DNA of 63,869 nt, filler included, from Reclinomonas americana ATCC 50394 (Eukaryota): assembly GCA_048213135.1 (NCBI GenBank). It is 7 parts of 2 records of this genome, joined end to end, with 100 filler letters (N's around TTAATTAATTAA, not from the genome) between each part and the next. Parts side by side here need not be neighbours in the genome. Positions count along the whole stretch, not along the records: positions 1 to 31,859 come from PS015039.1; 6 more parts are not named here. One strand, 5' to 3'. The notes under the pieces were generated by a model. That model saw only the letters and a program-made list of their open reading frames with translations, had not been told where the DNA came from and searched no databases. The position numbers and the translations under genes are program-made. The stretch's first letter is position 1; each line of letters opens with the position of its first letter. This document shows, piece after piece, positions 1 to 60,874 of this stretch.

Positions 1-3000
1 TCGACGCTGGAGTCGATTGTACAAACAGTGCCGCGTCGCGCCAAGACATTGCGCGCGGTGGCCGGCACACTGGGTGCCACGACCGGTCGTCTGCAGGGCG
101 CGCTCATCGCCATGTACCGCGCCTTCAATCGCCTCTTCACGTTTGTGTTTTCGGAGAGTGACACTGGTGGCCGGAACGAGGAAGTTGCGTGTCGATGACA
201 CACCGCTCTCTCGCCAGTGTTGGCTCATATTGTTCTGTTTTTCCTCGCAGGTGGTTGCTGCCTTTGGGTATTTGCGCGAGTACGCAACCAAGCTACTCTC
301 CGGCAACAACGCCGACGACTCATTCCTTGCGTCGCTTGTCGTCGAGCTGCGACGACTGCTGGATCTCAGTGACCCTGTGCTGCGAAAGGGCGCCGCAGAG
401 TCGTGGAAGATCGTGATTGAGATGAAGCGACAGGAGCTGCGGGAGCTGCTGGTGTACAAGACCGCCGGTGGCGAGCAGCGCTCACTAATTGACGACGGCC
501 TGGACTTTTTGGCCTCGGATCCTCTCATCTTCTGGGAGTGGTACCGGGAGCACACGGCGCAGGTGGATGCCGTTTTCAAGGACACGGTGATGCCGTTCTG
601 GACGCAGCGACAGGAACACGAGCGGTCGTTGATGTTGAACAGCACCAAGCGCATGGAGGATCAGCAACGACAGAAGCGCAAGCGACACACGTTGCACGAC
701 ACGACGTGGGCCACGCGTTTGGCCGAGTTTGTGCGCGCCAAGGACTCGCTGCTGCAGACCTCGCTGCTGGACGAAATGGAGCGGCAGCGTCGTCAGCGTC
801 GTATGGCATACGATCGCTACCGCTTTGCGTGGGAGCAGTGGAAGACTTTGCGCCAGGAGATCAGGCGACCTCGCGCTGCCTGGGAGGTCTGTGGTGTCTG
901 TCGTGTGTGTAATGTGATGGTGGTAATTTGTTTATTTTTGCTGACACTGCATATTTGCTGCAATCGCAGTACAAGTCGAACAAGGCTCGTCGGTGGCGGT
1001 TGGACTACACCGAAGGACCCGATCGCATGCGTCTCAAGCTGGAACCGTATCCCGACGAAGACGAAGAGGAGGGAGCGAGTGCGGCGGAAATTGCGGCCGC
1101 TGCGGCTCGTGCCGGCATGAAGGCGGAGAAGTCGTCGAGTGCGACCAGCCTGCGCCGTGGCAGCCGCCCTGTGTCTCCGTTTGCTGGCAGCGACAACTCT
1201 GGTAGCTCACCCAACGGGTCACCACCACGCACTGCCGGTGTCGAAGGTCCGTCGGACGGCACGTCGCCGTTGTCGGTGGCGGTGCCAGCTGCTGGCAGCA
1301 GTGACTCGTTGCATCTGACGGTGATGCCGTCCGCCACGGGTCCCTTGACGCCGGAAGCTGGATCACCAGCGGTCAGCACACCGACCGATTTTGCCAGCGA
1401 GCAGGGGTCGCCCTTGTCGCGCGCCAGCTCTCTGCCGGCTGGCCCTCTGCCGTTGTCGTTGGGCGGCGAACACGAGTCGTCCACCGGCTCGCCCGATTTC
1501 CTGCTGACGTCAGCCCAGCGCGCCAAGTTGGTGGCGCTTTACGAGGGTCGCTCGGCGCAAGCGGGCGCCGAAGGGGTTGACGAAGATCCCGCAGACGACG
1601 CGGTGTTGGTATTCGACGCCGATTCGGGTGGGTCGGACGACAGCGACCGCGAGGGTGCGTCGCCGTCGGTCGAGGCCCTCCGAAACGAGCTCGGCGGTCC
1701 AAGTGCTATGCGTTCTCCGTCGCCGCTGGTGGTGCGTCATTGTCTCTCCATTGCTTTTCCCCCGTTCAAGTGTGTTTTTGTTGGTGCTCACATTGTATTT
1801 GTGTATGCGTGTGTTGCGCGGTTGCAGTCGCAGTCGGAGAAGCAGGCGCGACGCAAGTCCAAGCGGTTCACGCGGTTGGAGGGCATCAATCGACCCGAAC
1901 CGCTGACACTGCCGCCAGCATCCACCGCCGCTCTGGTGGGCCCGGCAGCGCGCGGCTCGCGCACGCCAGATGCCACCAGCTCGAGTTCCAACGCGGCATC
2001 TGTGCGACGCAGTCTGAAGCCCAAGGGCCGTCGTCAGCTGTCGATTGATCTCTCCAAGACACTGCAGTCGGGTGATATGTCGTCGCCCGAGGAGGGTGGT
2101 CATGGCCTACTGGATGTGGACGGTGCGGCCGACCATTTCTTGGAGGAAAGCTTCGAGTCGACCGACCTGGCCGGCGTGATTGGTGCGGCGGCTGCGGCCG
2201 CCTCTCTCGGTGAGCACCCTGGTGACGCAGGATCGTCGAGCGGCTCGCCGCTGCAAGGTGCGCCGCTCGAGCAATACCACCACCAGCGGCCGTTGCTGCC
2301 GCCGCTGCCGTCGGGGAACATCCCGCTTGCGGACGGCACTTCGCTGGCGTTCATGGCCGACGATGCACCGCCGTCTGCAACGGGCGATCGTTCGACCGCG
2401 ATTGGCACGGCCGAGGACTTCCACGCCGCTGGCGATTTCGGTGATGAGCCGGGTGCGTCGGCGGCGGGAGAGGGCTCGGTGTCGTCGGCCTCGCCGTCCA
2501 TGCTGTCGCCTCCAGAGGCCGTCATCGAGGAAGTGGCGAGCAGCAGCGAGGCAGAGAACGAGGAGGGTGGCGAAGCTGATGAAGACGACGACGATGACGA
2601 CGAGCATGGGCACAAGCAGTTGGCGCGCTTGATTGATCGCTTGGACCGAGTGGACCCCAACACCATCTTCAACTGTGCACGCGTGCAGGGTCAGGAGGTG
2701 GTCGAGGGCGTGCTCATGGTGTGCGAGCACCACTTGTACGTGATTGACAACTATTTTGTCAACCCCAACGGCGATGTCGTGGAGGTGAGTGCGGCAGTCC
2801 TTCCTCATTTTTTTTTTTTGAAGAGCTGTTGTTTCTAACTTGCTGTCACCCCGTGCAGCTGAACGACGAACCGGAGACGGCGCCCAAGTCGTGGGAGGAG
2901 CAGATCAACGAAAGCACCAGCAGCACGGCTCACGAGAGCATTGCGGTGCGAACTCGCCAGGTGGAGCGCGAGGTCACACGCAATCGATCGGGACGCACTG

Positions 3001-6000
3001 TGTCGCACCGCGTGCGTCGATGGTCTGCCGACGAGATTCGCGAGCTGCACAAGCGGCGCTACCTGCTTCGTCCCGTCGGTCTGGAGCTGTTTTGCACCGA
3101 CGGTCGGACGTACCTGCTGCTGTTCCATTTGTCGGAGCGCGACGAAGTGCACGACCTCATCTTGTCGCGTCCACTGCCGAACCTCAACTACGGCAACTTC
3201 CTGATGGCCGACGGTGGCGCCGCACAGACCACCAACCGTGCGCGCAGCTTTGCTCGGCATTTGAAGATGTGGCTGCGTACGACGACGCAGCGGTGGCAGC
3301 GCGGCGAAATCTCCAACTTCCAGTACCTCATGTTCCTCAACACGCTGGCCGGCCGCACCTACAACGACCTCACGCAGTACCCGGTGTTCCCGTGGGTGCT
3401 GTCGGACTACCACAGCGAGGAGCTCAATCTCAACGACCCGAGCGTGTATCGCGACCTGACCAAGCCGATGGGTGCCATTGGCGCCGATCGTGCCGAGGCC
3501 TTCAAGATGCGCTACGCCGAGTGGGACGAGCCGGGTGTGCCCAAGTGGCACTACGGCAGCCACTACTCGACGGCCGGTGTGGTGATGCACTATTTGGTGC
3601 GCCTGGAGCCGTTTGCGACCCTCGCGCAGCAGCTGCAGAGTGGCCGCTTCGACCAGCCGGACCGCATCTTCCACTCGCTCGCCGACTCGTGGCTGTCGGC
3701 GTCGGAGCTGAGCATGACGGACGTGAAGGAGCTGATCCCCGAGTTCTTCTACCTGCCTGACTTCCTGGACAACATGAACGGCTTCGACATGGGCGAGCGC
3801 TCATCCGGTGTCTTTGTCGACTCGGTGCTGCTGCCGCCGTGGGCACACAACTCGCCGCGCGAGTTCATTATCAAGCACCGGCAGGCGCTGGAGAGCGAGT
3901 ACGTCAGCAAGAACTTGCACCACTGGATCGATCTCATCTTTGGCTACAAGCAGGTATGAGAGGATCTTGGTCGTTGGCCTCCATCTCCTCCGTTGTGCTC
4001 ATTCTTTCCTCTCTTTCCCGCAGCGCGGTCCCGCGGCCGAGGCAGCGCAGAATGTGTTCTACTTTTTGACGTACGAGGGCGCTGTGGACATTGACCAGAT
4101 CACCGACCCGAAGGATCGTGCGGCCGTGATTGCGCAGATCAACAACTTTGGTCAGACGCCACAGCAACTCTTCACCAAGCCGCACCCACAGCGCACAGTC
4201 AGCAGCTCGGCCGATCCGTTCTACGTGTACACTCACCCCGAGCATCTGACGCCCAAGGAGGTGCGCAAGGCCGGCGAATCGGTGTACGAAGTGCGCATCA
4301 ACTCGCTGGAGAAGGTGTTCTTTGCCGGTCCCAACGCCGTGATGATTCCACCCAAGTACAACAAGCTGGTGGCATTTGGCTTCCCGGACAACAGTTTGCG
4401 CCTCATTCGTGTGGCGAACGGGCGCACGCTGGAGGTCTACGAGGCGGCGCATGAGGGACAGGTGCGCATGAAACCACTGTCTCTCTCTCTCACACACACT
4501 ACAGCCTCGTGCTAATTGTTGTTTCGCCGACGCAGGTGTTGTGTGCGGCCATTTCCAGCGACGGCAAGATCCTGGCCACGGGCGGAGTGGACGGTATCGT
4601 GAGTGTGTGGCGTGTGGACAGACACGACGAGGTCGGTCGCAAGATTGTCCACTTGGCGCGCTTCTACGGGCACTCTGGCCCGGTGACCNNNNNNNNNNNN
4701 NNNNNNNNNNNNNNNNNNNNNNNNNNNNNNNNNNNNNNNNNNNNNNNNNNNNNNNNNNNNNNNNNNNNNNNNNNNNNNNNNNNNNNNNNNNNNNNNNNNN
4801 NNNNNNNNNNNNNNNNNNNNNNNNNNNNNNNNNNNNNNNNNNNNNNNNNNNNNNNNNNNNNNNNNNNNNNNNNNNNNNNNNNNNNNNNNNNNNNNNNNNN
4901 NNNNNNNNNNNNNNNNNNNNNNNNNNNNNNNNNNNNNNNNNNNNNNNNNNNNNNNNNNNNNNNNNNNNNNNNNNNNNNNNNNNNNNNNNNNNNNNNNNNN
5001 NNNNNNNNNNNNNNNNNNNNNNNNNNNNNNNNNNNNNNNNNNNNNNNNNNNNNNNNNNNNNNNNNNNNNNNNNNNNNNNNNNNNNNNNNNNNNNNNNNNN
5101 NNNNNNNNNNNNNNNNNNNNNNNNNNNNNNNNNNNNNNNNNNNNNNNNNNNNNNNNNNNNNNNNNNNNNNNNNNNNNNNNNNNNNNNNNNNNNNNNNNNN
5201 NNNNNNNNNNNNNNNNNNNNNNNNNNNNNNNNNNNNNNNNNNNNNNNNNNNNNNNNNNNNNNNNNNNNNNNNNNNNNNNNNNNNNNNNNNNNNNNNNNNN
5301 NNNNNNNNNNNNNNNNNNNNNNNNNNNNNNNNNNNNNNNNNNNNNNNNNNNNNNNNNNNNNNNNNNNNNNNNNNNNNNNNNNNNNNNNNNNNNNNNNNNN
5401 NNNNNNNNNNNNNNNNNNNNNNNNNNAGTGTGTTTGTGTCGTCACCGTGGTCGATGGTGCTGTCGGGCTCGGAGGACGGCACGGCCATTGTGTGGGACTT
5501 GAATCGACGGCGATTTGTGCGCCAACTCGGTCAGCTGCGTGTGGATGATGGCTTGCCTCGGCGCAGTCGCCTGCTGCACCAGCAGCAACTCGGTACTGCG
5601 GGAGGCGGAGGAGCGTCGGCCCAGCGAGCTGGCTCACCTGAGCCGGCCTCCAACGGCACGCCAGCCGAGCCACCGCGCCATCGCACCGGTCACGGCGGCA
5701 GTGCAGCGCCGCTGCATCCGCATCCGCAGGCCGTGTCGTGTGTGTACGTGAACGAGGACTCTGGTGATTTGATCACGTGCAGCAGTGGCACGCTGAACGT
5801 GTGGAGCGCCAATGGAGAACTGTTGCACTGCAAGCTCACGTCCCTGCAATGGCGCGAACGCATCACGGCGGTGACTGTGTCTCGCGGTCCGCCGTGGGAT
5901 GAGCGCAACATGATTGTGACGGGTCACCAGGACGGCGTGCTGCGTGTGTGGTCGGTTCTGCTGCCGTCGGACTCGGCCAAGTTTGAGCGTTCGCGTTCGC

Positions 6001-14900: not shown

Positions 14901-17900
14901 TCACACTGCAACTGCACCGAAGTGACATGACACACAAGGTTCACGCACCGGCTTCACGAATCGCAGCATCGAGTTGTTGCTGCGAGCCACCGGCTTTTGG
15001 CCGGACAGCAGACGCATTGTTTTGTGGCATCAGGCTGCGCAAAATGGTGGCCAGTGGCTCGGGTGACATATTGAGCGGAACGCGGCCCTGCCGATCGGCC
15101 AGCGTGATGACTTCGGGTGCGCGCAGTGCCAGCTCGGTGGCAACCGCCACAAAGCCGCGTTGTGCTGCAATGTGGAGCGCACAGTAGCCATCGTCTGCCC
15201 GTGCTCGCACACAGTCAGGGTACGCAGCGCGCAGGAGGTCCACACAAGCCAGCGAATCGCTGCATGACACAAAGTGAGCCATCAACAGAAACAACACACA
15301 AGATCAGCGGTGACTCACCACTGGGCGGCAAAGTGGATAGGAAGCCACATGTTGGCCTCTGGCACTCGCGCAGCCTCCGGGCACCGACTCAAAATGGCCT
15401 TCACAGCAAGTGCATTCCCTTTTTCCGCGGCAAAATGCAGCGGCGTCCAGTCATTGGGCTGGTGCGGAGTCATCGCCGTTTCCGGGGCGCGGTCAAGTAG
15501 CAGCTCAATGACTTCGGCGTTGTCGGTAACCGCGGCCAAGTGGATGGGAAGACTGCCCTTGGCGTTCGGCAACAAAGCCATACTGGGATTGCAGTCCAGT
15601 AGCACTCTCATGACGTGCGGATATCCCTTCTGGGCGGCCACGTGGGTGCCGAGCGACTGTGATTGACCGCGCGGCACGAGGAGAGACTCGGGGAATCGTT
15701 CGGCCAAGTAGCGCACGGTGTCGGCATGCCCGTTCTGCACCGCCGCTTGGAGAGGCGTCCTTTGTCACAACAGATTATCAACGAACGGTGAGAGTTGCCA
15801 CACACTGCGAAAATCACTTGTCACTCACCGCCCGTCGTCACACTGGATCTTGTTGGCCTCCGGGCACGCCTCCACAATCACACGCACGCATTCCAGATGT
15901 CCGCCTTGCGCTGCCAGATCGAGACACGTGGCGCCGCCCTGTCGACAGGAGAGCGCGGTTGCATTATAGTTAGGTTGGTGAATAGCATACACACAAACAC
16001 ACACTAGAACGCGCTCCAACCTTGAGCTCCTGCATTAAGGCCATTGACGGATCGTACTTTAGCAGCAGTCGAACCACGTCCGAATAGCCGAACTGAGCCG
16101 CCAAGTGCGCACTGCTCCAGTTGAGCTGCTCGACGGTGCGAACCATGTCCGGATCGGCTGCCAGAAGCACTTCCAGGCACGCAACAGCGTTCTCCTCCGA
16201 CGCGGTGTGCAGTGGTAGGCGGCCGCGATAGTCCGCCGTGTACAGCATGCCCGGGAAGACGTTCAGCAGAGCCAATGCACACTTGGGCGAATTGGCTTTC
16301 GCGGCACAATGAAGCGGCGTAAGACCATTGGAGTCTTGCAGTTGACCAGCATCGGCGCCCATGTTGAAGCGTACGAGCACTTCGAGGATGGCCTCAACGC
16401 ACTCGTCGAATCCATTAAAGGCGGCCACGTGCAGCGGCGTCGGGAGTGCACTAAATGGACTGACAGCCAGCGCCAAGTGCGGCGCCGTGGCGAGAATGAA
16501 GCGAATGATTTCCGGCTGACAGTTCTGCGCGGCCACAATCACGGGCGAGGCCACCAAGACTTCTGGGTCGCGCAGCAGTCGCAGCTGCTCGGGGGTCTCC
16601 AGCAGCAGTCGCACAGCCTCCACGCTTCCGCACTGGCAGGCCAGCGGCAGTGGAGTCCAGTTCTTCGTGTCGGCAATGGTGACAGCGTCCGGCGCCAGCT
16701 CCAGCAGATACTTGATTGCTTCGGCATAACCAGAATACGCCGCCAAGTGCAACGCCAGTCGACCGCTCGAATCGGGGATTCGCAGCGTGTCGGGATCCAT
16801 CAGACCCAAGAAGCGACTGGCCACTGCATGGCCGTGCAGGCATGCCGTATGAAGTGGCAGGAGACTGGTGTCGCCGCGCGTGCGACGAGTCAGCGAGTGG
16901 TCCTGTCGCAGAAGCACAGACAGCACGGCCGCCTGCCCGCGCTCAGCGGCCGCGTGTGCAATCGAACCGCGTTTCGTTAGTCGATCAATCATCCCAGGCT
17001 GGGAACGCAGCAGCTGCATGACGAGCGGAACGTAGCCGCATCCAACGGCCACCTGGAACAGCTCGAACATATTCGATTCGGCAAGTACGAGGCTGCCCGG
17101 ACTCAGTCGGTGCAGCCCATGCAGACGCTCGGGGTCGTTACTCTTCGCCGCCGACACCACGCAGGCACCAAAGTCAGCTTCCGGCGTGCCGCCCACGGCC
17201 CACTGCAGCAGGAAGTCGTGATCGCGAGTATCGTCAACGGCGAAGCAGGAGAGTCGACCATCACGGCCGCCGACGAGCACACGGCCCAGCTGTCGTCCGT
17301 CGAGCGTTGGCGAAAGCGGCGCAGGCACCACACCGGATACACAGTCGGCTTGTCGCACGAAGCCACGCTCAACGCGCGGACGATTTTCCAACGAAAGCAA
17401 TCGCACCGCACCGTCGGCAGAGCTGACGGCCAGGAGCGGCAGAGCACTCGCCACACCCGACGGCACCATGCAAATACCACTAATGGGCGATCGCGCGACT
17501 CCGACACCGGCTTCTCGATGCACAGACGATGGCGGCTGTCGGAAGCGCTCCGCAGGTGACATGGACGATTCGAGATCGATGCCGTACCTTACCACCGTCA
17601 CCGAGCCGTCGCTCGATCCAATTACCAGTACCACCTCAAACGTCTGCACCACGACCTCGACGCACGACACTACAGCCTGGTGATTCTCACCCAGCCTATA
17701 CTCGCCCAACAGCATGTCGTCCATGTCGCTGCCGGAGAGATCGAGAAAGCGGAGCACATTGTCAAGTGCTGCTGTCACCAGCATAGTGCCGTCAAACACC
17801 GGCACCACACATATCACATAGTCGCCGTGCGGCAACATCTCGTGCAGTGGATCCAGCCACAAACTTGTTTTCCAGTCACCGCCACGCTCGCCACCGACAC

Positions 17901-20900
17901 TGCTGCTGCTGCTGCTGCTACCAGTGACCGCGTGGGGGCCTGGATCAGCTGGCGATTTGGCGCTCGAGGCGTCGCTGCTGTCCTTGAATTGCATCAAGCT
18001 CGCACTGATACCGGCAGAACTGGCCGTGCTCCGCACGCACAGAGTGGCATCGAGCAGTGAGCAGCGGAACACCGACAGACAGAGAACTGTGTCGAGCGAT
18101 GGCGGCGCCTCGATCTGCAGTAGTAGTTCTCCATTCTCTAGGTCGAACACTCGAACACCACCCTCACTGTCGCCGACGAATACGACACGATCGTCGGGCG
18201 AGATGGCCAACGCTGTCACCATGCGATTCGAGAGTGTGCTGGTCTGCGTAAAGTCCCACAGTAGCTCGCCGGTCTGGGTGCTGAAAACATGGCAGAGCGA
18301 GCCGGGACCGTGGCCACCCGTAACCACCAGCTCACCGTCGTGTGTAACCGCCATGGCATCACCAGCGGAGATGGAGACCGCCCCGCCGTCACTAATGTCG
18401 TCGAGACTTGGAATGGGCCACAGCAGCAGGCGACCATCCTGCGAGCCACTGATCACATGTCGACTGTCCATGGTGCCCTTGATGGTGTTGGTCGGCAGGA
18501 CATGCGCCTCGTACCGCCGATACACTTGACTACTGCCCGTCGCTGTGAGCGATACGTGACCGTCGGAGCCAGCAGCGGAAATCCAGTGACCGTCGGGTGT
18601 GAAGGAGATGGAGAGGATGTCGTCGTGTGCCTTGATTGTTTGCATACGGTCGCCAGTCAACAGCGACCAAACATAGATGCACCCATCGTCTGCAGCACCG
18701 ACAATCCTCTCTGCTTCCACTGACACATCAATGTCGTGAAACAGAGTCGACAGCGCCACGGTCTTGAGTGCAAACAATCGCCGCGCCTTCTTCAACGCCA
18801 CCTTGAGCAGATCCTTGCCACTGTCGCTGGACCGTTCGCATTCGTCCAGGCGCTGCATCACACCAGTAGAGTACACAGCCGTCTCCTTCCCAACGCCTCC
18901 AATAACAAGCAGATCACCGATCGAGCATCCAGCACAGCGTGCAGTCACAGGCAACGAGTTCCCTTGCAGCGGAGGCACACAGCGCATCGCAAAAACGCCA
19001 TTGTCGGTTGACAGCGACCATTGCTTCTCACCCGTTTCCACTGAAATGGCCCGAACCCCGTCGTCGTGACCGATCATCAGCGTGCGCCCGTCGGTGGAGA
19101 ACACCAGCGCCGAAATTCGGCCAGGCTTGTCAGGGCAGCCCGCATTGGGCGGTATTCCCGAGCGGCGCTCCCACTGCGGCAAATCCCACACGCCAACGTG
19201 GCCGGGTACATCGCCGCCAGCAGCCAGCATGCTGCCATCAGGAGACAGAGCCAGGGCGTGCGCGCTGCATTCGAATGGGTTCTTCAACCGGAACGTCTCG
19301 TGCCCGTCAACCAGGTGCCACATGACAATGTCGCCATTGTTGTGACCGCTGATCACCACCTCGCGGTTCGACCAAGCCGGATGGGCAACAACCGAACAGA
19401 GAACGGCCAGGTTGCATCGCATGCGCGACGGATACGGCAGCTTGGCATCGGTCATGTCGGCCTCTGAAAAATCAGTGTCGACGCAAAACGCCGTGTCCAA
19501 TGCCACATGCCGCAGGTCGGACCTCGCCAAGCTCGCGCGCTGCAAATTGGCGGTGGAGAGATCGGCATACGGAATGCGAATACCGTCCAGAATACGACCG
19601 GAGAAGGACACGTGCGCTCGGCACAGAATGGTGGCCGAGTTCGAGGCAATTGTCGCCAGCGACGCGTCTTCTCGCGAGGCGGCAATCACTCGCCACAGTC
19701 GCTGCTGCATGCGCTCGTTGCGGCGCACGCGCTCCGCAATCTGCGCCGTCAGACTCGTGTACCGCAACTCGGAGATGAAGTGGACATTCAGCACGTGTGC
19801 GCGCAGATCAATGTGACCGGAGAGCGTGTCAAAGTAATCGAGGTCCCACGACTTCAGCGCAAATACGTGACGCGCCAGGCAGTATTCGAGCAGCGACGGG
19901 TGCAAAAATGCCCACGCGCTGGTTCCCTGCCGTTGCACAATGGCACTGCAGTCGCGAATGGATCTGAGAGCGTCCGTCATGTACGGCAGAAAATCGACAC
20001 CCGTTGCACGAGTGGTTCCGCGAATGTGCATCATGGCCGCCAGCGACTCCAAGAAAGTAAAGCACAGGTCCGTATTCGGCCGTTGGTTGGGCGGCCGGCG
20101 ATTGCGTTCGCGCGCGATCCACTCGCGCACGAACACGTTCAGCACGTCCACTCGCAGCAGACGGCCGGCACGTACCGACATGGCCACGCGACCATCAATA
20201 CTGGCTGCAGGCACACCCTGGCGTCGACCGGCCGCGCCTTTCTTCTTTTGCTTCTCCAACAGTTGCGGCAGCACTTGTACCATGGTGGACAGCATGAACG
20301 GCGACGACTTGAGCACATCGGCGCCGTGCAGCGCCGCCAGCGCAACACGCAGATCGTCCAGCACTCTCCACGGAGATCGGGAGTTGGACGAAAGCGACGG
20401 CGGCGACGACAGTGCCGCAGCAGCGGAGGAGACCTCTGAGACAGGCATGTCGTCACCGGCCAGCAGCTGGCTGTTGCGAGTGCACATTGCCATGTAGTGC
20501 ACCAAGTACTCCTCGATCTGCGCTGGCGAGAACGGCACCAAATGTCGCACCACAAGACCGGAAAACGCAGACTGCAAGCTGGAGGCCCGTGACGAGGACT
20601 CGGCCGGTGCCGGCCTCTCGTCACCCTCGATCGGACTTGATTGGGGCTGCTGGTCAGCCACTGCATGCTGCTGTTCTTGCTGGAGCTGCTCACCGTTCTC
20701 GCCGCCGACCTGCACGGGAGCCAGCGACGCAGGTGGCGCGAACACATGTGTGTAGCCCGCGACCAGTCCGTCGGCAAAGTCACTGCGGCAAGTGATGATG
20801 ATTTTGACGTCGTCATATTGCGCGAGCTGTATGAGAGAACGCGTGGTGAGTGTGACGATGCATGCATGTGGTGGTGGCTCTGAGGCCGAACCTGGTTAGT

Positions 20901-23900
20901 GACAAAGAGATTGGCTGGCCGTTCCATGTCCTGCTGCCACTCGTCATAGCCATCGCACAGCAGCAGCAGGGGCAAATGTCGCAACTGCTGCACGTCATCC
21001 TCCTTGATGAATGGGTGCAGCTGCATGAGAGTTCCGGCCACAAGGTTGGTGGCCGGTTGCTGCAGGCTGGCCAGCGAAACACGCAGCGGCAGGCGTGCGG
21101 TGCCATCTGCGTGCTGCGCCAGCATCCGATTGGCCAGCACCGCCAAGCTCAGACTCTTACCGCTGCCGCCGTCACCGAGAACGAGCATTACACGTGCCGC
21201 TGGATCGGCCAGGAAGGTTTCAAACTGCACATCCACGAATGAGAAAGGCAATACTTAATGGTTCACAAAAATGCACAGTTACTACAGAAAGGAAGACAGT
21301 GTGCGGTGACCCTGACCGACACACAACACACCTCGTTCTGCAAACTCCTCTTGTCGGCGGCAAGCCTGGATGCTACGCACTCCAACGGAACATACAGCTC
21401 CAGTTCGCGTTGCATCTGCGGATTGTGCTGCAACTGCCAGGACTGTCGTTCGACAACTTGCGCCAGCTTCGCCTCCAAAGTGGTATACTGCACCAAGGTG
21501 TCGAACGGATCTGCAGCGTACATACGAGTGAGTCGCGCACGGCGTGGATGATGAAGCTCCACTGAGAGACAAAAGAGCGCTCACCACAACGGTACCGCTG
21601 CAGTCGGTCGAACCAACGCGGACTTTCCGCGTCACTGGGCACCTGCACCTCGAGGATGTGCAGGTACTTTGCCAGTTGCTCAAAAACGTGCTCCATGGCT
21701 TCGGCAGTGGACAGCTCCTCGTGGAACACACTGTTACGGATGTCTCTCATGCCCGCCACCGCGTCTCTCTGCCGTCCACAGTAAGCACAGCGAAAAAGAA
21801 GACTTTGACTGACTACGAGACCGCGATTCGCACACACGTACCACCACGGCGTCTGGCTCCAACAGCAACACAGTGCGGTCACAATGAATCGTGTTGTCCC
21901 AGTAACTCGCGATTGCTTCGTCGGCCGGGCGCACCGCCACGCGGCTGGGCAAGCGGTATCCGAGGAAGCAGATGAGCGACGACAGGAAGGTGAGTTCCAT
22001 GGAATCCGCATTGGCCTCCTCATCGAGCAATCGCAGTTGCTCCATTATCACGTCGCGAGATTTACCGGCAGAGGCCTGTGGACGGCAAGACTTGAATTTC
22101 TTGCCATCATCTGACGCGGTCCACCAGTATCTGCGATGTGTCGTTGTGTATCAGAATCCAGTGCAACGCCCACGGGTGGAGAAGAAGAGAAGCGCATGGC
22201 CAAACCTCCAGTCATGGTCCGAGAGAGCTGCAGGATCTCGGTCGGGTACAATCAGCCGGTAATCGAAAGGTGGCGACTCGCTTGCCGTGCGCCTCTTGAA
22301 GTCACGATACCGGTGTACTGCGTGAAACCGCAGTGCCGGAAGCACAACCTGACTGATGGCGCAGTCCAATCGCAACCACAGCTCGCGTTTGCGACTGTGC
22401 AATAATCGGGAGTTGAGAATCATGAAAGTAGACAAGCAAGCAAGAGATGCGGCACGTACCTTGCGGCCACACTCGCCGCGTGTGCCGACTTGCTGTCGGT
22501 GAGAGCTGCGCCAAGACTCACAGCCCACTCTGCGTAGCCAGCGGTTGAAGAATCAGCAAGTGACAAGAACACAATGAAATCATGACAACGGCGACGAAAC
22601 TGTCAAAGCACGCCAGCGGCGTAGTGTGCGCCAAGTTGCGCAGAGCAGATGTGATGTTGTTGCCGGCCAAGGCCATGGTAAACGCCTGGTCCACCATGTA
22701 GTAGGTGTCCGGTAATGTGCACAGCAGGAACGGCACAAAGAGGCGGCGTGAGGCCCATTGGCGCATCATGTCCATGATGCGGCGCATGCCAATGTCCGGT
22801 GACCACGGCGCTATTGTGCCAAGAGCCGGCGACGGTGATGCGTCGTCGCCCGCTGACCTCTCGCGGTCCGCTTCAGCACTGCCGCCGAGAGCGAGCGCGT
22901 GTTGGCCGCGCTTGGGAGCGCCAGCAACTGGCAGACCCTCCAACAGATTGGCGTCTGCCTCGTCAACTCGAGCGGCGCGTGGAAAGTGGATCTCCCACTC
23001 GCGACTGATGGTCACTAGTTGCGCGAAGCGGCTGGCCCACGTGAGGCACTCGTCGACAGACGGAATCGACCCGGGTTGGCCAGCTTGGATGATGCGCTCC
23101 CGCTCCGACACCATCCACGAAGCGAGAACGCCACAAACGTGTTCCCACGAACCAAACGACCCTTGAAATTGGTCCACGGCGGCCGCCGCAATGTGTGCAA
23201 AGCACTCGGTCAACAGCGCAGGCAGGCGACACAGCGCCAACAGTGCCGGCGACGCTTGCAACAGCGTCAGTTTGCTGATGGCACTGGCGCCAATCTCCAC
23301 CACCGGACTCGAATCATCGTTGGAGAGCTGCAGCTCGTCAATGGCCGACACCAACTCATCGTCGGCAAGTGGCAACAAAAGACGCTGGACAAGCCACTGC
23401 TGGTGTACGAGCGTGCCGGCCACTGCTGTCGGCCACATCACTTGCACGTAGTCGTCCTCGGAGGTGCCGAGTTGAGCCGCATACTCTGGTCGGCACACGA
23501 TGATGACCTTGACGTTCTGGTACTGCAACAACTGCAGGCGCCACGGGCAGACGGGTCAGCAGCAGAAGATATTGAAAAAATGACACACCTCGAGCACACA
23601 CAACGCAACTCCGTCTCTGGTAAAAATGTGCTCCTCAATGTTGGCGCTGTCAAAGCCGTCGACGAGCAGCAGCAGCGGCTGTTGGCGCAAACGATCGACA
23701 TCACTGGCCGAAAAGTCGCCCGAGTACAACTTGAGCGCCTCCGGAAGCAGTTGACTGCGCAGGCGATCCGCCGGCAGCTGCAACAGGTGCAGCGGAATGT
23801 ACACTGGCACTCGGCACTGCGAAAGCCTCTCCGACGTGTCGCCCTCGTGAAGAACGCGGCGAGCCAACTCCACCGTGGTGCGAGCCAGCACGTGTGATTT

Positions 23901-25190
23901 GCCGCTACCCGCGGCGCCAAACAAAAGCATGACGTGCGCTTTTTGGTTGGCCAAAAAGGTGCGCACCTGCCCGGACGAAATTCGATGACGGCGTCAGGTC
24001 CCATGCAACAAACACGCACACACACACACACACACACATCAGCAGCAGCGCTCACCTCATGAGCCACAGGCGCTCGATGATCGCGAGCATCTGGCGCGGC
24101 GCAGGAAACATCGAATGTGCACTGCACAGCGTCCTCGAACCTCGCCAGTTGCGAGTCGCACAGACGACGGACCTTGCCGTCAAAGTCCGACAGCATGGCG
24201 CTCACATCGCCGTGCATGATGCGATCGATTTCGCCGTACCAGTGCGAGTTGACAGTGACGTTGCACGAGGCCGCCAGTTCGCGCACACTGCGAACCAGGT
24301 CGTTCATGGTGTTGTTAAATTGGTCGTCGGTGAGACCAATGGACTCGGCGTGCACGATTTCGTTGCGGATCTGCTGCACGCAGTGAAACGCCAGTCTCTG
24401 TGGGGGAGGTGGACAGGAAGGGAAAGGGGAATAGACGGAGAAAGAGGAGGAGGGGGAAGAGGGCAATGAGAGAAAGCATGAGCGCAGGGAACGAGTGAGA
24501 TAAAGAGGAGACTTGCACGCACCGCTGGCTTGTCGGGCACCAACAGCACAGCTGCACGCTCCCGCTGGCACTCGGCGTCCCACAACTTGGCTTTGTCTGT
24601 GGTTTTCGGCTCTGTCGCGTACGCCTTCACCGGTCGATATCCAATGAGCTGCGCGCAATAATTCGCCGCCGTGATATCCAGATCGGCCGCAGACCCAGTC
24701 CTGAACAGCGTCTCCCACGCCGCCTTTTGCTCGGCTTGCTTGAGCTTGGAGCGCACACGGTACTCGGTGCCGTCAGCCTTGTGCACAACTCGATATCTGC
24801 GCAAAGGAGGCGAGTGCGTGAGCCATGCTGCGGGGAGGGATTAGGCTCGGAATAATGTGTGTGAGTGAGATGTACCTCCACTGCAAGTCAGGCGGCAGTG
24901 GTTTCGGATCAACAAAGTAGGTCGCATCGATCCGCACGGGAAGCGCGGTGTCGTCGAGAAGCACCTCTTGGCGGAACTTGATCACTGCCTGCTCGAGGTA
25001 GGCGCGCAGCACACGGAGAGCCGACTGCAGCGTGGCCAGGTGCAAGCGCAGTGCATTTTGTAACTTTCTGTGTTCGGTGGCCTGTGTGAGAACGAGCGGA
25101 GATCATCACTGCGCTCGAACACGAACGCGATCACCGTTGTGGGTCAACTCCGTCGTCGACCGGGGAGGGTGGAGGCACGTGTGGCCAGCT
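11931..25190 (-). CDS. Giant NLR/STAND-like protein: HEPN(DZIP3-like)-NACHT-HEPN-NACHT-pentapeptide-WD40-ankyrin repeats-TPR; true start upstream (unresolved, ~25200-26100), last exon approximate
   Basis: Two P-loops (VMLLFGAAGSGKS, VMLVLGDGGSGKS), Walker B (LLLVDGFDS, LLLCDGYDE), KVIIVCR/KIIITCR, FLHPSLLEY, pentapeptide ADLSTANLQRASLARSDLR, WD40 repeats, many TPLHxAA-type ankyrins and TPR helices (GHAAIDAGDYAQALRCFQHAL). Manual splicing keeps the frame from HEPN1 through NACHT2 into the ankyrins; a few distal junctions are uncertain. Confidence 0.85.
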
Positions 25191-26205
25191 GCAGAACAGA
25201 GGGAGAGGGAGGGAGAGGGAGAGAAAAGGAGGAAGAGAGAGGGCGAGAGCGATTGACGGAAACAGTGAGTTAGACAAGCAAGCACAGAGAGAGAGAGAGG
25301 AGGGAGGGAGGGAGAGAGTAGGGAGGGAGAGGGAGAGAGAGGCACACACGCGCACACACACTGACAGACCCGCTGCCACTTGCACTGTCACTTCGGGGAA
25401 ACGAGTGATCAATGGGTGCCTGTGCACACACATACAGCAAGTGAGCGGATGAGTGTCGCGCGCGCACACACACACATACACTTTGAAGGTGGAGACGCAC
25501 TGGTGTTGGGAAGGGAGAGGCTGAGACACCGGGTGAGGGCGGTGGAATGCGGTATGTATCGGGAGAGCTGCAGAGAGACAGGCAGTGAGAGAGAGAGAGA
25601 GCAGTGAGAGAAGTTGGAGAAGGTGTGCAGTGGGCGAAACTCGAGTGGGTTCATTGTCGACAGAGGGTGCTGTGAGAATCGGTGTCTCCGCACAGAAAGA
25701 GAGAGAGATTCGATGTTCGAGACACTCCAACCAAGCAATCCGAACGCGATCCGGACACGCTGTTGGTGGCAGCCAAAGAGCAAGTACAGAAGGCTTGTGC
25801 GACTACTCGGAGTCTATAGTGCGATTGGCGACGAAATGCCATGCGTTGGACTTCGATTTTTTCGATATCATCGACGTCGACGTCGCTGGAATCCTCGCGC
25901 TCACCGACGAATGCTTCTTTCGTTGGCGCTCTTGGAAATAGCAAAGTGTAAAACGCAGCAACAGGGTGCCTGATGTGGCGTGTGTGTTTGCATTCGTGCA
26001 CAGGCTGCGATGGAGTGAACGTCGGGATCATGCCGGCTTGCGCGTCGAAAATCATAACGGCCATGCTCTCCTGTAAGAGAGGAAGCAGAGCACTAGGGAA
26101 TGTAGGTGCCACGTACGCCGCACGTGCAGCACGGACGAGGAAGGTTTTGACAGGGGACGCGCAGGACTTCACACACACCGTCTTCTCTCTCACGAATCGA
26201 AAGCC

Positions 26206-26690
26206 ATGAACGTGCCCGCGCTGATTGACCCTGTTGTGCGTACTCTAGCAGCTGTGTGTTGTGTCTGTGTGTATGCTGTATGCGTGTGGGGGTCAATGTA
26301 TTCGCTGCAGTCAGATTCATGTTCTCACTCACTCTCTTTCTCTCCATCTCTCGCGTGCAGGGCCCTCTGGGTGGCCAGTTGCGTGCACACATGCTGTGCT
26401 CAACGCACAGCCAATCATAATATCTCTCTCATACAATCACTCGCTCCCTCTATGTCTATCTCTGTCGCAGCTACTCGGTGTTGCCTGGCATGGTGAACAG
26501 TGCCGACAACATGACCGCTTCCTCTCAGCAGTATGGCGTGCCCGGATACGGCTCGGATGGTGAGCGAAGAGCCTCTCCAACATCGAGTTGATGTGTTATC
26601 CGAATCTCATGCGTTTTGTTGGCAGTGTTGGGCTCGCTGCAGACCATTTCGCAGAACACGCAGGACTTCATGGCGGAGAATGGCATCTGA
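26206..26690 (+). CDS. 66-aa microprotein, copy 1 (exons 26206-26235, 26361-26377, 26471-26559, 26626-26690)
   Basis: GT-AG splicing gives MNVPALIDPVGPLGGHYSVLPGMVNSADNMTASSQQYGVPGYGSDVLGSLQTISQNTQDFMAENGI*. Exons are conserved with copy 2; introns have diverged. Confidence 0.8.
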
Positions 26691-26772
26691 AAGAGTCTTC
26701 CCCGTGCTGCGCAATTAATGAAACACCAACAGACTGACTGCACTCGATCACGTAACGATACGATACGATACG

Positions 26773-27299
26773 ATGAACGTCCCCGCGCTGATTGACCCTG
26801 TTGTGCGTGCACTTACGAAGCAGCACTTCTTGTTCTTGAGTGTGTGCGTCTAGTCAGTGTTCGATCAACCTGGTTACTTGCTTCAAGATCAGCAGCCGAC
26901 TCTCTGTCTCTCACTCACTCTCTCGCTCTCTCTCTCTCTCGCTGTGTGTGGATGCGGGTGTGTGTTTGTAGGGTCCTCTCGGTGGCCAGTTGCGTGTGTT
27001 TCGCTGACCACTCGACGTCACATCCGCTGTCTCGCTCACGCACATTCTCTCCTCTCTCCGCCTGCGGTCGCAGCTACTCGGTGTTGCCTGGTTTGGTGAA
27101 TGGTGCCGACAACTTCAGCGCAGCCTCGCAGCAGTATGGCGTAAGTGGGTTTGGCGCAGATGGTGAGCCACAATGCCATGCTCACATGCATAATCATCTG
27201 GACGCTGATCATCGTGAACTTCTTGCTGGTGCAGGCATGGCTTCTCTGCAAAACCTTTCGCAGAACACGCAGGACTTCATGGCGGAGAATGGCATCTGA
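26773..27299 (+). CDS. 66-aa microprotein, copy 2 (exons 26773-26802, 26972-26988, 27074-27162, 27235-27299)
   Basis: MNVPALIDPVGPLGGHYSVLPGLVNGADNFSAASQQYGVSGFGADGMASLQNLSQNTQDFMAENGI*. Exon lengths 30/17/89/65 nt are identical to copy 1, with synonymous and conservative changes. Confidence 0.8.
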
Positions 27300-28417
27300 G
27301 AGAGTCTTTGCAATTGTTCACTCTCCCATGCCAGTTGCCACTTATTTGCCTGTGGAGTACTAGTGAACCGGAATCCCCCCCTCTTGATTGACTACCAGAG
27401 AGTTTTTCGGAACAGTTGAGGTGCAGCGCTGCGGAGGAACCCAGACGTAGGACTCGGAAGAAGGGTCGATCGCAGAGTCTGTTCTCGCTTACGAGCAACA
27501 ACATCACGGTGTCTGCGCAGCGGTATGCCGACCCCTTGCAATTGTTGTTCTGTTGATTTTCACTGTGCAGCCACCGGTCAGTGGCTGCCACAGTGTTGAA
27601 GTCACTGCAGCTGCTGCTGCAACAATGACGACGACAACAACAACAACTGCGCCTACCACCTGCTCAAGCCACCACCGATATGAGCCTCACCAACAACATG
27701 ACAAGCTCTCTTTTATTTCAACCACGTCACACCTCCACTGCTTTGCTTTGCCTGTTTCACGGATCCNNNNNNNNNNNNNNNNNNNNNNNNNNNNNNNNNN
27801 NNNNNNNNNNNNNNNNNNNNNNNNNNNNNNNNNNNNNNNNNNNNNNNNNNNNNNNNNNNNNNNNNNNNNNNNNNNNNNNNNNNNNNNNNNNNNNNNNNNN
27901 NNNNNNNNNNNNNNNNNNNNNNNNNNNNNNNNNNNNNNNNNNNNNNNNNNNNNNNNNNNNNNNNNNNNNNNNNNNNNNNNNNNNNNNNNNNNNNNNNNNN
28001 NNNNNNNNNNNNNNNNNNNNNNNNNNNNNNNNNNNNNNNNNNNNNNNNNNNNNNNNNNNNNNNNNNNNNNNNNNNNNNNNNNNNNNNNNNNNNNNNNNNN
28101 NNNNNNNNNNNNNNNNNNNNNNNNNNNNNNNNNNNNNNNNNNNNNNNNNNNNNNNNNNNNNNNNNNNNNNNNNNNNNNNNNNNNNNNNNNNNNNNNNNNN
28201 NNNNNNNNNNNNNNNNNNNNNNNNNNNNNNNNNNNNNNNNNNNNNNNNNNNNNNNNNNNNNNNNNNNNNNNNNNNNNNNNNNNNNNNNNNNNNNNNNNNN
28301 NNNNNNNNNNNNNNNNNNNNNNNNNNNNNNNNNNNNNNNNNNNNNNNNNNNNNNNNNNNNNNNNNNNNNNNNNNNNNNNNNNNNNNNNNNNNNNNNNNNN
28401 NNNNNNGTGCGTCAAAT

Positions 28418-31859: not shown

Positions 31860-31959
31860 NNNNNNNNNNNNNNNNNNNNNNNNNNNNNNNNNNNNNNNNN
31901 NNNTTAATTAATTAANNNNNNNNNNNNNNNNNNNNNNNNNNNNNNNNNNNNNNNNNNNN
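31860..31959. other. Artificial scaffold linker (N-TTAATTAATTAA-N); the same linker core is at 37887, 42543, 51699, 54430 and 60555
   Basis: Identical 12-mer with stops in all six frames, centred in a 100-nt N spacer, present six times. Confidence 0.97.
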
Positions 31960-37842: not shown

Positions 37843-37973
37843 NNNNNNNNNNNNNNNNNNNNNNNNNNNNNNNNNNNNNNNNNNNNTTAATTAATTAANN
37901 NNNNNNNNNNNNNNNNNNNNNNNNNNNNNNNNNNNNNNNNNNCTCATTCTCACTCCCCCCCCCCCCCCCCCAG

Positions 37974-42498: not shown

Positions 42499-42598
42499 NN
42501 NNNNNNNNNNNNNNNNNNNNNNNNNNNNNNNNNNNNNNNNNNTTAATTAATTAANNNNNNNNNNNNNNNNNNNNNNNNNNNNNNNNNNNNNNNNNNNN

Positions 42599-50248: not shown

Positions 50249-51853
50249 ACGTGGTGCGTGATGTGTGTGGGTGCAGTGAGATGTGCGGAGGGAGAGAGGG
50301 GAGGGAGGGAGAGTGGAGAAGGAGGGAGAAGTGAAGGAATCGAACAAATTTGCAGTCTAGTCAGCGAGTGTGACACAAACTCGACGACGCAACTGTTGCC
50401 GGTGGCGGGTTCATTGGCGGCGCCCATGAGAAGAGGGGATGAAGAGGAGGAGGAGTGGGGAGAGAGAGTGAAACAAAGAGAGAGAGAAAAGGTGGTGGTG
50501 AGGTGCGCTCACAGCGACAAGAAGAAATGCGGAAATGGACGGAAAGAGTTTTTCGCCTCTGCTGCGTGTTCGGAATTTTTTGCAGCAGTGGCGCAGTGTT
50601 GCACTGTGGCAGTGGAGGAGTGCGACTGGAGTGCGCGAGTGAGATGAGTGAGTGGGGGAGGTGGGAGTGATGTCACTCCCGGTTTTGGAGCAACGCGAGT
50701 GATGCAACAAGTGCTGCAATTAGCATTTCAGCGCGCAGCATGCTTGGTCATGGCCTTGTACGCTCGAACGAGGTGTACACATGGCCATGGGACGAGCCGG
50801 ACGGAGAGTGTCCAAGCGCAGAGGGCAATCACGAATTTGAAGACTGCAATCCAAGTCGCGCGCGAAGCAGTTCCCTTGAGATCTGCACGTCGAGGGTCGT
50901 ACAGCAAGCGCTGGTGCTCGAGGTTAGCGTACAGCTCGCGCGCAGTTTGATTTTGCAATTGCAATATTAATTGCAAGCGACTGCGCTGCGAATTCGACGT
51001 CGATGGGCGTCTGCGAAGGTTTGCAAGGCCACGGGTCTGGATCCGGTATATATTCAAGGCTTTCTGTGCACGAGTGTCCACGACCAACAGGAAAGCCGAT
51101 GAGCGTCGACAGGACAGCGTGCACAACAATTCCGCGACGTCCACGTCCACTCCGCCAACGTGCCACGCAAAAAAAGGAGGAACACCATGCGCAGATACGA
51201 TACTCGGCGAGCCTGCACACTCCAACACTTCCCCAAACGTTGGAAGGCCATCCTCACAAGAGGTGAATCTTGGCGCCCAAAAATTGAGAGGCTTCACCCA
51301 ATTTTCATCCTTCTGTGAGGACGCCGTGTGCTCTCAGTTGTATCACACCGGAGAGCTCCGCTACGTTAATGCGAAAACCCTTGTGTGAAGCAGTTGGGCA
51401 GGAAAAGAAGACAGGTGCTCATCTGTGTACGCGCTTGCAATGGCAGGCCTGCGCGTATCCGCACATGGGACGGTGGAAGAAGCCGGTTTGTTCTCGACCT
51501 CCACGTGGTGTGCGGCGGAAACAAGCTTGCCTGGTTGTGGTGGTAACCAGGTAAGGTTGGCTAACTGGGAACATCCCACCCCGCCGGCTTCTTTTTGGCC
51601 ATGGGGGCGTGGTTTGAGAGAAGCAACAGTTTCCCAATGCTTGCCCCACTGTTCNNNNNNNNNNNNNNNNNNNNNNNNNNNNNNNNNNNNNNNNNNNNTT
51701 AATTAATTAANNNNNNNNNNNNNNNNNNNNNNNNNNNNNNNNNNNNNNNNNNNNTTCTTGATATGATCAATTTCTCTTTGTCTTCTTCGTAGTTACTGCG
51801 ATGGACGTCTTCTGGTGGTCACTGCTGACGAAGTCTTCTTCCTGGCCTGGAGG

Positions 51854-54318: not shown

Positions 54319-54526
54319 GTGTAAGTGCATAGTGTGTATAGTGTATGTGTGTGTGTGTGTGTGTGTCATGCTTGTTTGTGTATGCNNNNNNNNNNNNNNN
54401 NNNNNNNNNNNNNNNNNNNNNNNNNNNNNTTAATTAATTAANNNNNNNNNNNNNNNNNNNNNNNNNNNNNNNNNNNNNNNNNNNNCACACTCAACAACTG
54501 TGCTGCTAGTGTGTGTGTGTGCGTAC

Positions 54527-54706
54527 CATGAAGGCCAGGTGCGCCCACCACAAGAAAGCCACGATCAGTCTGAACAGCCATGACTGATCGCTGTCCTCAC
54601 GAGGCGACAGCCACACAAACCACACACAGATGTGCGTCACGAGGCCAGAGAGGAGGCCCACAAACTGCGCTGTTTGCGTGGTCCTTCTCCTGCTCTCCGC
54701 CACCAT
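54527..54706 (-). CDS. First exon of a membrane protein (two TM helices), divergent from MZT1; truncated
   Basis: ATG, two hydrophobic stretches, then a GTACGC donor. The layout is compatible with a DHHC palmitoyltransferase N-terminus but this is unproven. Confidence 0.4.
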
Positions 54707-54768
54707 TGCCTCCTCTATCGAGTGGATGGATTTCGCGCCCTTCTTATCTCACTCACACACGCGCGCGA

Positions 54769-55035
54769 ATGGAGAGTGGAAGTGTCAGTGAAGCACGCGA
54801 GGCACTGGAGAGTTGCGTGTGGTGTGCGCGCTGTTCTTTTGCTCTCTCTTACACGCACAGCGCAACTGACGATTCCCTTGTGTCAGTTGTCCATGAGATC
54901 TCGCGCCTGTTGAACACAGGGCTCGATCGCGAGACTCTTGCAGTGCTCGTCTCACTGTGCGAGGCCGGTGTCAACCCGGAAGCACTGGCTGTGGTTGTCA
55001 AGGAGATTCGACGAGCGGCGAGTGGCGCAGAGTGA
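54769..55035 (+). CDS. MZT1: Mitotic spindle organizing protein 1 (MOZART1/GIP), 2 exons
   Basis: [49 protein letters not shown] after removing intron 54812-54885. Confidence 0.96.
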
Positions 55036-60292: not shown

Positions 60293-60874
60293 GCACGAAA
60301 AGAGAAGACGCAAATTCACGTGTGAGTCTCACTCGATGCACTGTGCATCCCTCAGTGAGAGAGAGAGTGTGTGTGTGTGTGGTTGTCTTCCCTTTTCTCG
60401 CCACTCTTCTCCTTGCTCTGTTTTTCTTCTTTCCTCTTCCTCTCCTTCTCTTCATTATCTTCATCATCTTTCTTCTTCTCCTTCTCCTCCTCCTCTTCTT
60501 CTTCTTTCTTNNNNNNNNNNNNNNNNNNNNNNNNNNNNNNNNNNNNNNNNNNNNTTAATTAATTAANNNNNNNNNNNNNNNNNNNNNNNNNNNNNNNNNN
60601 NNNNNNNNNNGTCAGTGTGTGTTGCTGCTCACTGTTGGATCCAACTCGACATTCTCTGGTCGTCCCCACGCGACTGTTCCAAAGCAAATGTCGATGACAT
60701 AGGTTGCTGAGCCAGGTGCCGACGACTTGCACGCAATCGCCTGCTGCAGCACAGACAAACACACATGAGTGGCCCACCTTTGTCACTTCTGTGTTGCAGC
60801 GCATCCTCAACAGCTGCTCCCTCGCTCTCCATCTGCGTGACAAACTGATTGTGTGACTCACTCACTGCTAACAA

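Follow-up and report, generated by a model that had tools for sequence, protein, structure and literature searches.

A probable tandem pair of four-exon genes for lysine- and arginine-free microproteins beside a NACHT gene of Reclinomonas americana

A stretch of 63,869 nucleotides (nt) from Reclinomonas americana ATCC 50394 (GenBank assembly GCA_048213135.1), referred to here as the window, carries two small candidate genes in tandem next to an NLR-type gene with a NACHT domain. This locus raises the question of whether the two candidates are genuine protein-coding genes and, if so, what kind of product they encode and whether that product has anything to do with the receptor. The initial annotation had described a hidden pair of genes for microproteins of 66 amino acids, positioned head-to-head with the NLR gene, and had speculated that the products might be self-assembling subunits or amyloid-type partners of the receptor. 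The reading that we favour, and consider probable, is that of two intact, tandem-duplicated nuclear genes with short introns and four exons, each encoding a soluble, non-secreted, lineage-restricted microprotein of 66 residues.

Reconstruction of the exon coordinates from the sequence placed copy 1 at 26206–26690 and copy 2 at 26773–27299, both on the plus strand. The coding sequence of each copy comprises 201 nt, corresponding to 66 amino acids followed by a TGA stop codon, and is divided into exons of 30, 17, 89 and 65 nt, with phases likewise equal between the copies. Each ATG is the first in-frame one downstream of a stop codon, and similarity between the copies starts at this ATG. All six introns have GT..AG borders, with lengths of 125, 93 and 66 nt in copy 1 and of 169, 85 and 72 nt in copy 2. 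Elsewhere in the window, homology to the BEACH domain fixes an intron of ~70 nt delimited by GT..GCAG, so that the introns of the pair fit the usual kind of this host. The list of open reading frames (ORFs) contains neither gene whole, as had been claimed, and its sole entry in the pair (26844–27299) exists because intron 3 of copy 2 (27163–27234, 72 nt) keeps the frame, lacks stop codons and is thus read through. If retained in the transcript, this intron would give rise to a variant of 90 residues; the 66-nt intron 3 of copy 1 holds a TGA. With a coding sequence of 201 nt distributed over four exons, one of them of 17 nt, the two would be genuine genes that escape ORF finders and most gene callers.

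The exons of the two copies are identical at 170 of 201 positions, with zero insertions or deletions, and the introns are 59–61% identical, with many gaps. For every exon, the alignment score was reached by none of 1000 shuffles. Among the intron interiors, the score was matched by 41 of 1000 shuffles for intron 2 and by 443 of 1000 for intron 3, that is, at or near the shuffle baseline. For intron 1 it was matched by none of 1000, but both copies have a CT microsatellite in common there, which mononucleotide shuffling destroys. Exon 2 stands out as an isolated 30-nt island of similarity amid diverged introns, and its two differences between the copies both fall on third codon positions. Over the entire coding sequence, 24 codons differ, 11 of them synonymously, and 11 of the 13 replacements have BLOSUM62 scores of at least 0. 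The differences are distributed over codon positions 1, 2 and 3 as 8, 6 and 17. Nei–Gojobori analysis of copy 1 versus copy 2 yielded a non-synonymous divergence (dN) of 0.106 and a synonymous divergence (dS) of 0.456, with a dN/dS ratio of 0.23 (Fisher p = 3e-4). The two alternative frames show 2 and 1 synonymous versus 19 and 21 non-synonymous codon differences, and contain stop codons.

Seven long ORFs from the window served to train a log-odds score of codon usage. In the proposed frame, the copies scored +38.4 and +28.5 bits, compared with −51 to −21 bits out of frame, and the introns were negative too. As a benchmark, in-frame chunks of 198 nt from a neighbouring ORF of 1641 residues scored 21 ± 7 bits. 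The pattern of substitutions indicates that the copies are under protein-level purifying selection in the proposed frame, and the pair very probably corresponds to real protein-coding genes. The equal exon sizes and phases, the diverged introns, the mostly synonymous or conservative exon changes and the purifying selection put forward in the initial annotation were thus all borne out, the last by the dN/dS calculation. An alternative is that the conserved blocks are non-coding, or belong to a decayed duplicate in which the open frame is accidental. No homologue turned up in the protein and contig searches described below, as would be expected in that case. Nevertheless, we consider it very unlikely, given the three-base periodicity of the substitutions together with the dN/dS ratio, the frame-specific codon usage, the exact preservation of exon lengths while all three introns changed length, and the finding of zero Rfam families at E-values up to 1 within 25900–27700. 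The features of the locus are collected in Table 1.

Table 1. Coordinates of the microprotein gene pair and of the two NACHT genes in the window.
Feature	Coordinates	Strand	Description
Copy 1 exon 1	26206–26235	+	30 nt; donor GTGCGT; 29/30 identical to copy 2 exon 1
Copy 1 exon 2	26361–26377	+	microexon of 17 nt; acceptor ..GCAG and donor GTTGCG; matches copy 2 at 15/17
Copy 1 exon 3	26471–26559	+	89 nt; entry phase 2; 70/89 identical, gap-free
Copy 1 exon 4	26626–26690	+	65 nt; ends in TGA; 56/65 identical
Inter-copy spacer	26691–26772	+	82 nt, from copy 1 stop to copy 2 ATG
Copy 2 exon 1	26773–26802	+	30 nt; ATG is the first in-frame start; donor GTGCGT
Copy 2 exon 2	26972–26988	+	17-nt microexon; donor GTTGCG
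Copy 2 exon 3	27074–27162	+	89 nt
Copy 2 exon 4	27235–27299	+	65 nt; ends in TGA
Divergent neighbour gene	22518–26064	−	NACHT-type P-loop domain; 5' end uncertain; context only
Second NACHT gene	15970–22044	−	NACHT (28.8 bits), WD40 and ankyrin repeats; no microprotein pair alongside

The two predicted products are identical in 53 of 66 residues, and lysine, arginine, cysteine and tryptophan are absent from both. Each contains five acidic residues (aspartate plus glutamate) and one histidine, for a net charge of approximately −5, and glycine, serine, asparagine, glutamine and tyrosine jointly account for 29 of the 66 residues (44%) in each copy. This agrees with the acidic, G/S/N/Q-rich composition devoid of K, R and C that had been noted initially. 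Under the amino-acid frequencies of the long ORFs of the window, a 66-residue protein would lack lysine, arginine and cysteine altogether with a probability of 2.6e-4, and it is unusual for a protein under selection to contain none of Lys, Arg, Cys and Trp. Two consequences follow from this composition. Ubiquitination would be possible only at the N-terminus, since there is no lysine, and trypsin-based shotgun proteomics is most likely blind to the product, since the lack of lysine and arginine leaves no tryptic site. Secretion was judged by hydropathy and composition. By this approach, no signal-peptide-like or membrane segment was found (top 19-residue Kyte–Doolittle mean of 0.8–0.9, with no basic residue at the N-terminus), in line with the initial claim, and the microprotein would be soluble and cytosolic or nuclear. 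No significant internal repeat was found either, as 138 and 132 of 300 shuffles reached the respective scores.

The replacements between the copies are confined to residues 23–53. No replacement affects the first 22 residues, which are rich in proline and glycine and whose codons carry four synonymous changes, or the last 13. The two invariant ends would probably be the working parts, joined by a G/S/N/Q/Y-rich middle that would tolerate conservative change. Such a combination of invariant ends and tolerant middle suggests, tentatively and with appreciable room for other functions, a small binding or regulatory peptide that may dock on a partner through both termini. An enzymatic role, or one as a structural polymer, is improbable for the microprotein.

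The queries used to seek relatives represented the products of exons 3 and 4 (50 of 66 residues), in some cases together with translated intron, in the form of the 74-residue read-through of copy 2 (exon 3, intron 3 and exon 4) or of single-exon peptides. The invariant N-terminal part is split over three exons and was searched only as the ten residues of exon 1, and most of the libraries searched are poor in correctly spliced protist genes. Among proteins of near length, zero candidates were retrieved; among longer ones, 32 candidates had words in common with the queries and none reached an E-value up to 1. Searching 1.84 billion representatives with phmmer gave two matches (E = 3e-6 and 2e-5), which were judged compositional and not homologous because they involved long repeat proteins (2081 and 608 residues) matched in six and four stretches. 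Pfam returned zero families at E-values up to 0.01, and hmmscan against Pfam-A likewise returned zero for all four exon-3/4 pieces, even at E-values up to 10. The best match among PDB sequences, likewise at E up to 10, had an E-value of only 0.28, and the ESM Atlas provided no usable match. Pattern matches were obtained in metagenome contigs (418), prokaryotic genome contigs (220) and viral contigs (10), with zero confirmed in each case, and a back-translated pattern of exon 1 had zero matches in the metagenome contigs. Within the window, neither tblastn nor blastn found further copies, and three exon-internal peptide strings were found in no paper. A motif common to the 3' flanks, TTGCAATTGTT, occurs three times versus 1.04 expected, which is not significant as 13 of 100 shuffles reach three. 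A scan for bacterial promoters and terminators revealed nothing notable, and is irrelevant to a eukaryote. In agreement with the initial annotation, in which no family had been recognised, we conclude that the microproteins would form a lineage-restricted orphan family without detectable relatives.

Several observations weigh against the reading of intact genes for a lineage-restricted, two-ended binding peptide. The gene models are predictions from sequence, and intron 2 has an atypical base at +3 of its donor (GTTGCG), though in both copies. As the queries covered 50 of 66 residues and included translated intron, a known family could have been missed. The final 44 nt of both coding sequences (26647–26690 and 27256–27299) are identical (P = 0.007 under random placement of the 31 differences), in contrast to the synonymous sites elsewhere, which have diverged (dS 0.46). 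This 3'-end identity could reflect local gene conversion or constraint at the nucleotide level, and gene conversion would weaken the case for selection on the C-terminal 13 residues. The charge–hydropathy plot assigns the proteins to the ordered or collapsed side (H of 0.49–0.50 versus a boundary of 0.44), so that a disordered linker peptide cannot be taken as established, and the fold may instead be compact or self-associating. The C-terminal hydrophobic moment is not significant, as ~13% of shuffles reach it. In an AlphaFold2 model of the copy 2 read-through, the part derived from exon 4 is helical, with block values of the predicted local distance difference test (pLDDT) of 72, 88 and 81, and the C-terminal segment is probably helical on this basis; however, the model has a mean pLDDT of 63.8 and includes 24 residues of translated intron, and hence does not represent the true protein.

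A self-associating product is at the heart of one of the initial speculations, namely that the microproteins are self-assembling subunits, in size like R-body Reb or cryptomonad ejectisome proteins. Such subunits would polymerise into an extrusive or fibrous body. The small size, the tandem paralogues, the lack of basic residues and the position on the collapsed side of the charge–hydropathy plot are compatible with this proposal, and Reb and ejectisome proteins likewise are small and encoded by clustered paralogous genes. Unlike these, the microproteins derive from a spliced eukaryotic gene and match no sequence family: the Pfam search over 50 of 66 residues provided no Reb-type match, the best PDB E-value was as poor as given above, and there is no significant internal repeat. 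Moreover, prokaryotic genome contigs, in which reb genes occur according to published abstracts, yielded no relative. The proposal was thus not sustained, and we regard a polymer of this type as highly improbable.

The favoured reading of a soluble, lineage-restricted microprotein has counterparts among eukaryotic lineage-restricted (orphan) microproteins and small ORFs. The pair resembles them in its 66-codon coding sequence, in the lack of detectable homologues, in being missed by ORF-based annotation, and in purifying selection between paralogues. It differs from them in its four exons, including a 17-nt microexon, in the absence of K, R, C and W, and in the placement of the copies 82 nt apart. 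We conclude that this orphan microprotein family is new and of an ordinary kind with an unusual composition, and does not represent a new mechanism.

The short distance between the copies bears on their mode of expression, though not on their function. A spacer of this length leaves too little room for a usual terminator followed by a promoter. Copy 2 would depend either on transcription together with copy 1 or on a promoter of very compact form. A single bicistronic, operon-like transcript for both copies would be consistent with the 82 nt from the copy 1 stop to the copy 2 ATG and with the finding that the upstream sequences, taken as 100 nt before each ATG, lack similarity. It also has a precedent in green algae, in which some nuclear mRNAs are polycistronic and carry small ORFs at close spacing, as described in PMC7896298. 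There as here, small ORFs lie on one strand at very short inter-ORF distances; in contrast, the ORFs of the present pair are mutually paralogous, and co-transcription is hypothetical. In addition, leaky scanning is disfavoured by seven further ATGs between the two starts, four of which share copy 1's frame. The abstract of PMC11291117 names the translation mechanism as a question, with leaky scanning appearing as a proposed route in its title. Taken together, we hold a bicistronic transcript to be conceivable but rather unlikely.

The initial placement of the pair head-to-head with an NLR gene was confirmed insofar as the divergent neighbour carries a NACHT domain (23556–23993, minus strand), which scores 26.9 bits, just above the cut-off of 26.7 (E = 4.8e-6). 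The arrangement of STAND proteins, with the NACHT domain in the centre and C-terminal repeats, was found, the WD40 and ankyrin repeats being those of the second NACHT gene. There is no other convincing ORF between the NACHT gene and copy 1, and the adjacency is real, since the pair and both NACHT genes lie within one N-free stretch (7749–27766). If the receptor starts at its putative ATG at 26064, 142 nt separate it from the ATG of copy 1. However, the putative first exon of the receptor has a codon-usage total of only +1.5 bits over 138 codons, and the first clearly coding minus-strand ORF is found at 24776–25102. Upstream of its P-loop, the NACHT neighbour has a long region of its own. No relatives of it were found at E-values up to 0.001 among proteins of 605–2000 residues. 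As a separate observation, both NACHT genes (23441–24772 and 21376–22044, both on the minus strand) have in common a short region with an R-N-x-x-x-H motif before the P-loop (BLASTP E = 0.018, 16 of 68 residues identical). We take this region to resemble the Rx4-6H signature of HEPN RNase domains; it has no Pfam match and is a lead only.

Given this neighbourhood, the microproteins might be functional partners of the divergent NACHT gene, expressed with it from a bidirectional promoter. Their role would be that of a guarded target, a decoy, or a small acidic inhibitor that silences the receptor or its N-terminal effector region. The divergent orientation over the short distance that would separate the two starts, the NACHT domain of the neighbour, and the acidic, lysine-free composition of the microproteins are in accordance with such a role. 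Yet in compact genomes chance alone often produces divergent neighbours. The first exon of the receptor has poor codon-usage support, and the coding start may lie ~1.1 kb away. Further, the other NACHT gene of the window has no such pair, and our searches found no relative of either gene elsewhere, so that no conserved linkage was seen. We therefore consider a partnership of this kind improbable and treat the NACHT neighbour as a chance adjacency, probably with no functional tie to the pair. The broader proposal of a new K/R-free microprotein family that is co-expressed with, and acts on, a NACHT STAND receptor, whether as guarded bait, as silencing subunit or through self-templating by an uncatalogued motif, is given equally little credence. 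If it were true, a protist-like eukaryote would join fungi and bacteria among the carriers of gene pairs made up of an NLR and a small partner, and if the NACHT linkage held genome-wide, the pair would be a candidate for a new receptor–partner module.

The second initial speculation saw the microproteins as amyloid-type partners of the adjacent NLR, as in fungal NLR–effector pairs. In an amyloid signalling pair of the fungal NWD2/HET-S type, a prion-like motif of the microprotein would be templated by the same motif at the N-terminus of the adjacent NLR. According to PMC5485727, one motif is common to the NLR N-terminus and the partner C-terminus in such pairs, the partner has a cell-death domain, and the NLR is without an effector domain of its own. 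The present locus resembles the amyloid pairs of fungal and bacterial NLRs in having a small gene beside a NACHT gene, and in its abundance of G, N, Q and S. A G/S/N/Q/Y-rich composition devoid of K and R would also suit the proposal. With regard to a prion-like low-complexity domain, this composition stands beside the lack of a significant repeat and a hydropathy outside the disordered range. Unlike in those systems, no motif in common with the putative N-terminus of the receptor was detected, and local scores were at or below the shuffle mean. In Smith–Waterman comparisons with the 138 residues of the putative NACHT N-terminus, the true N-terminus being uncertain, 1434 (copy 1) and 526 (copy 2) of 2000 shuffles reached the score, and 1874 and 1821 of 2000 did so for its first 40 residues. 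A partner of 66 residues has no room for an effector domain, and its exon-3/4 parts have no Pfam match. The NACHT gene, in turn, has the long region upstream of the P-loop mentioned above, the internal repeat is not significant, and the pair adjoins only one of the two NACHT genes in the window. On these comparisons, the amyloid-pair proposal appears largely refuted by the missing common motif, and we regard it as extremely unlikely.

The window is eukaryotic, with BEACH, phosphoglucomutase, MOZART1, WD40 and NACHT genes interrupted by short introns. It contains six identical spacers of 100 nt (31860–31959, 37843–37942, 42499–42598, 51655–51754, 54386–54485 and 60511–60610), which consist of 44 N, TTAATTAATTAA and another 44 N and place stop codons in six frames, as read letter by letter in the first two. 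As these spacers join concatenated contigs, order and adjacency across them are unproven. Introns and spacers often contain CT/GA and GT/CA microsatellites (25131–25802 on the minus strand, 26900–26950 on the plus strand, and elsewhere), which account for long spurious Leu/Ser-repeat ORFs in the ORF list. The BEACH and PH_BEACH gene (2748–4512, plus strand; 341 bits), whose ORF is nearest to eukaryotic BEACH/FAN-type clusters in the Atlas, has its 70-nt GT..GCAG intron near 3955–4024. Finally, a MOZART1 gene (54574–55032, plus strand; Pfam, 80 bits) is itself a microprotein gene, apparently with a short intron between the start and the conserved domain.

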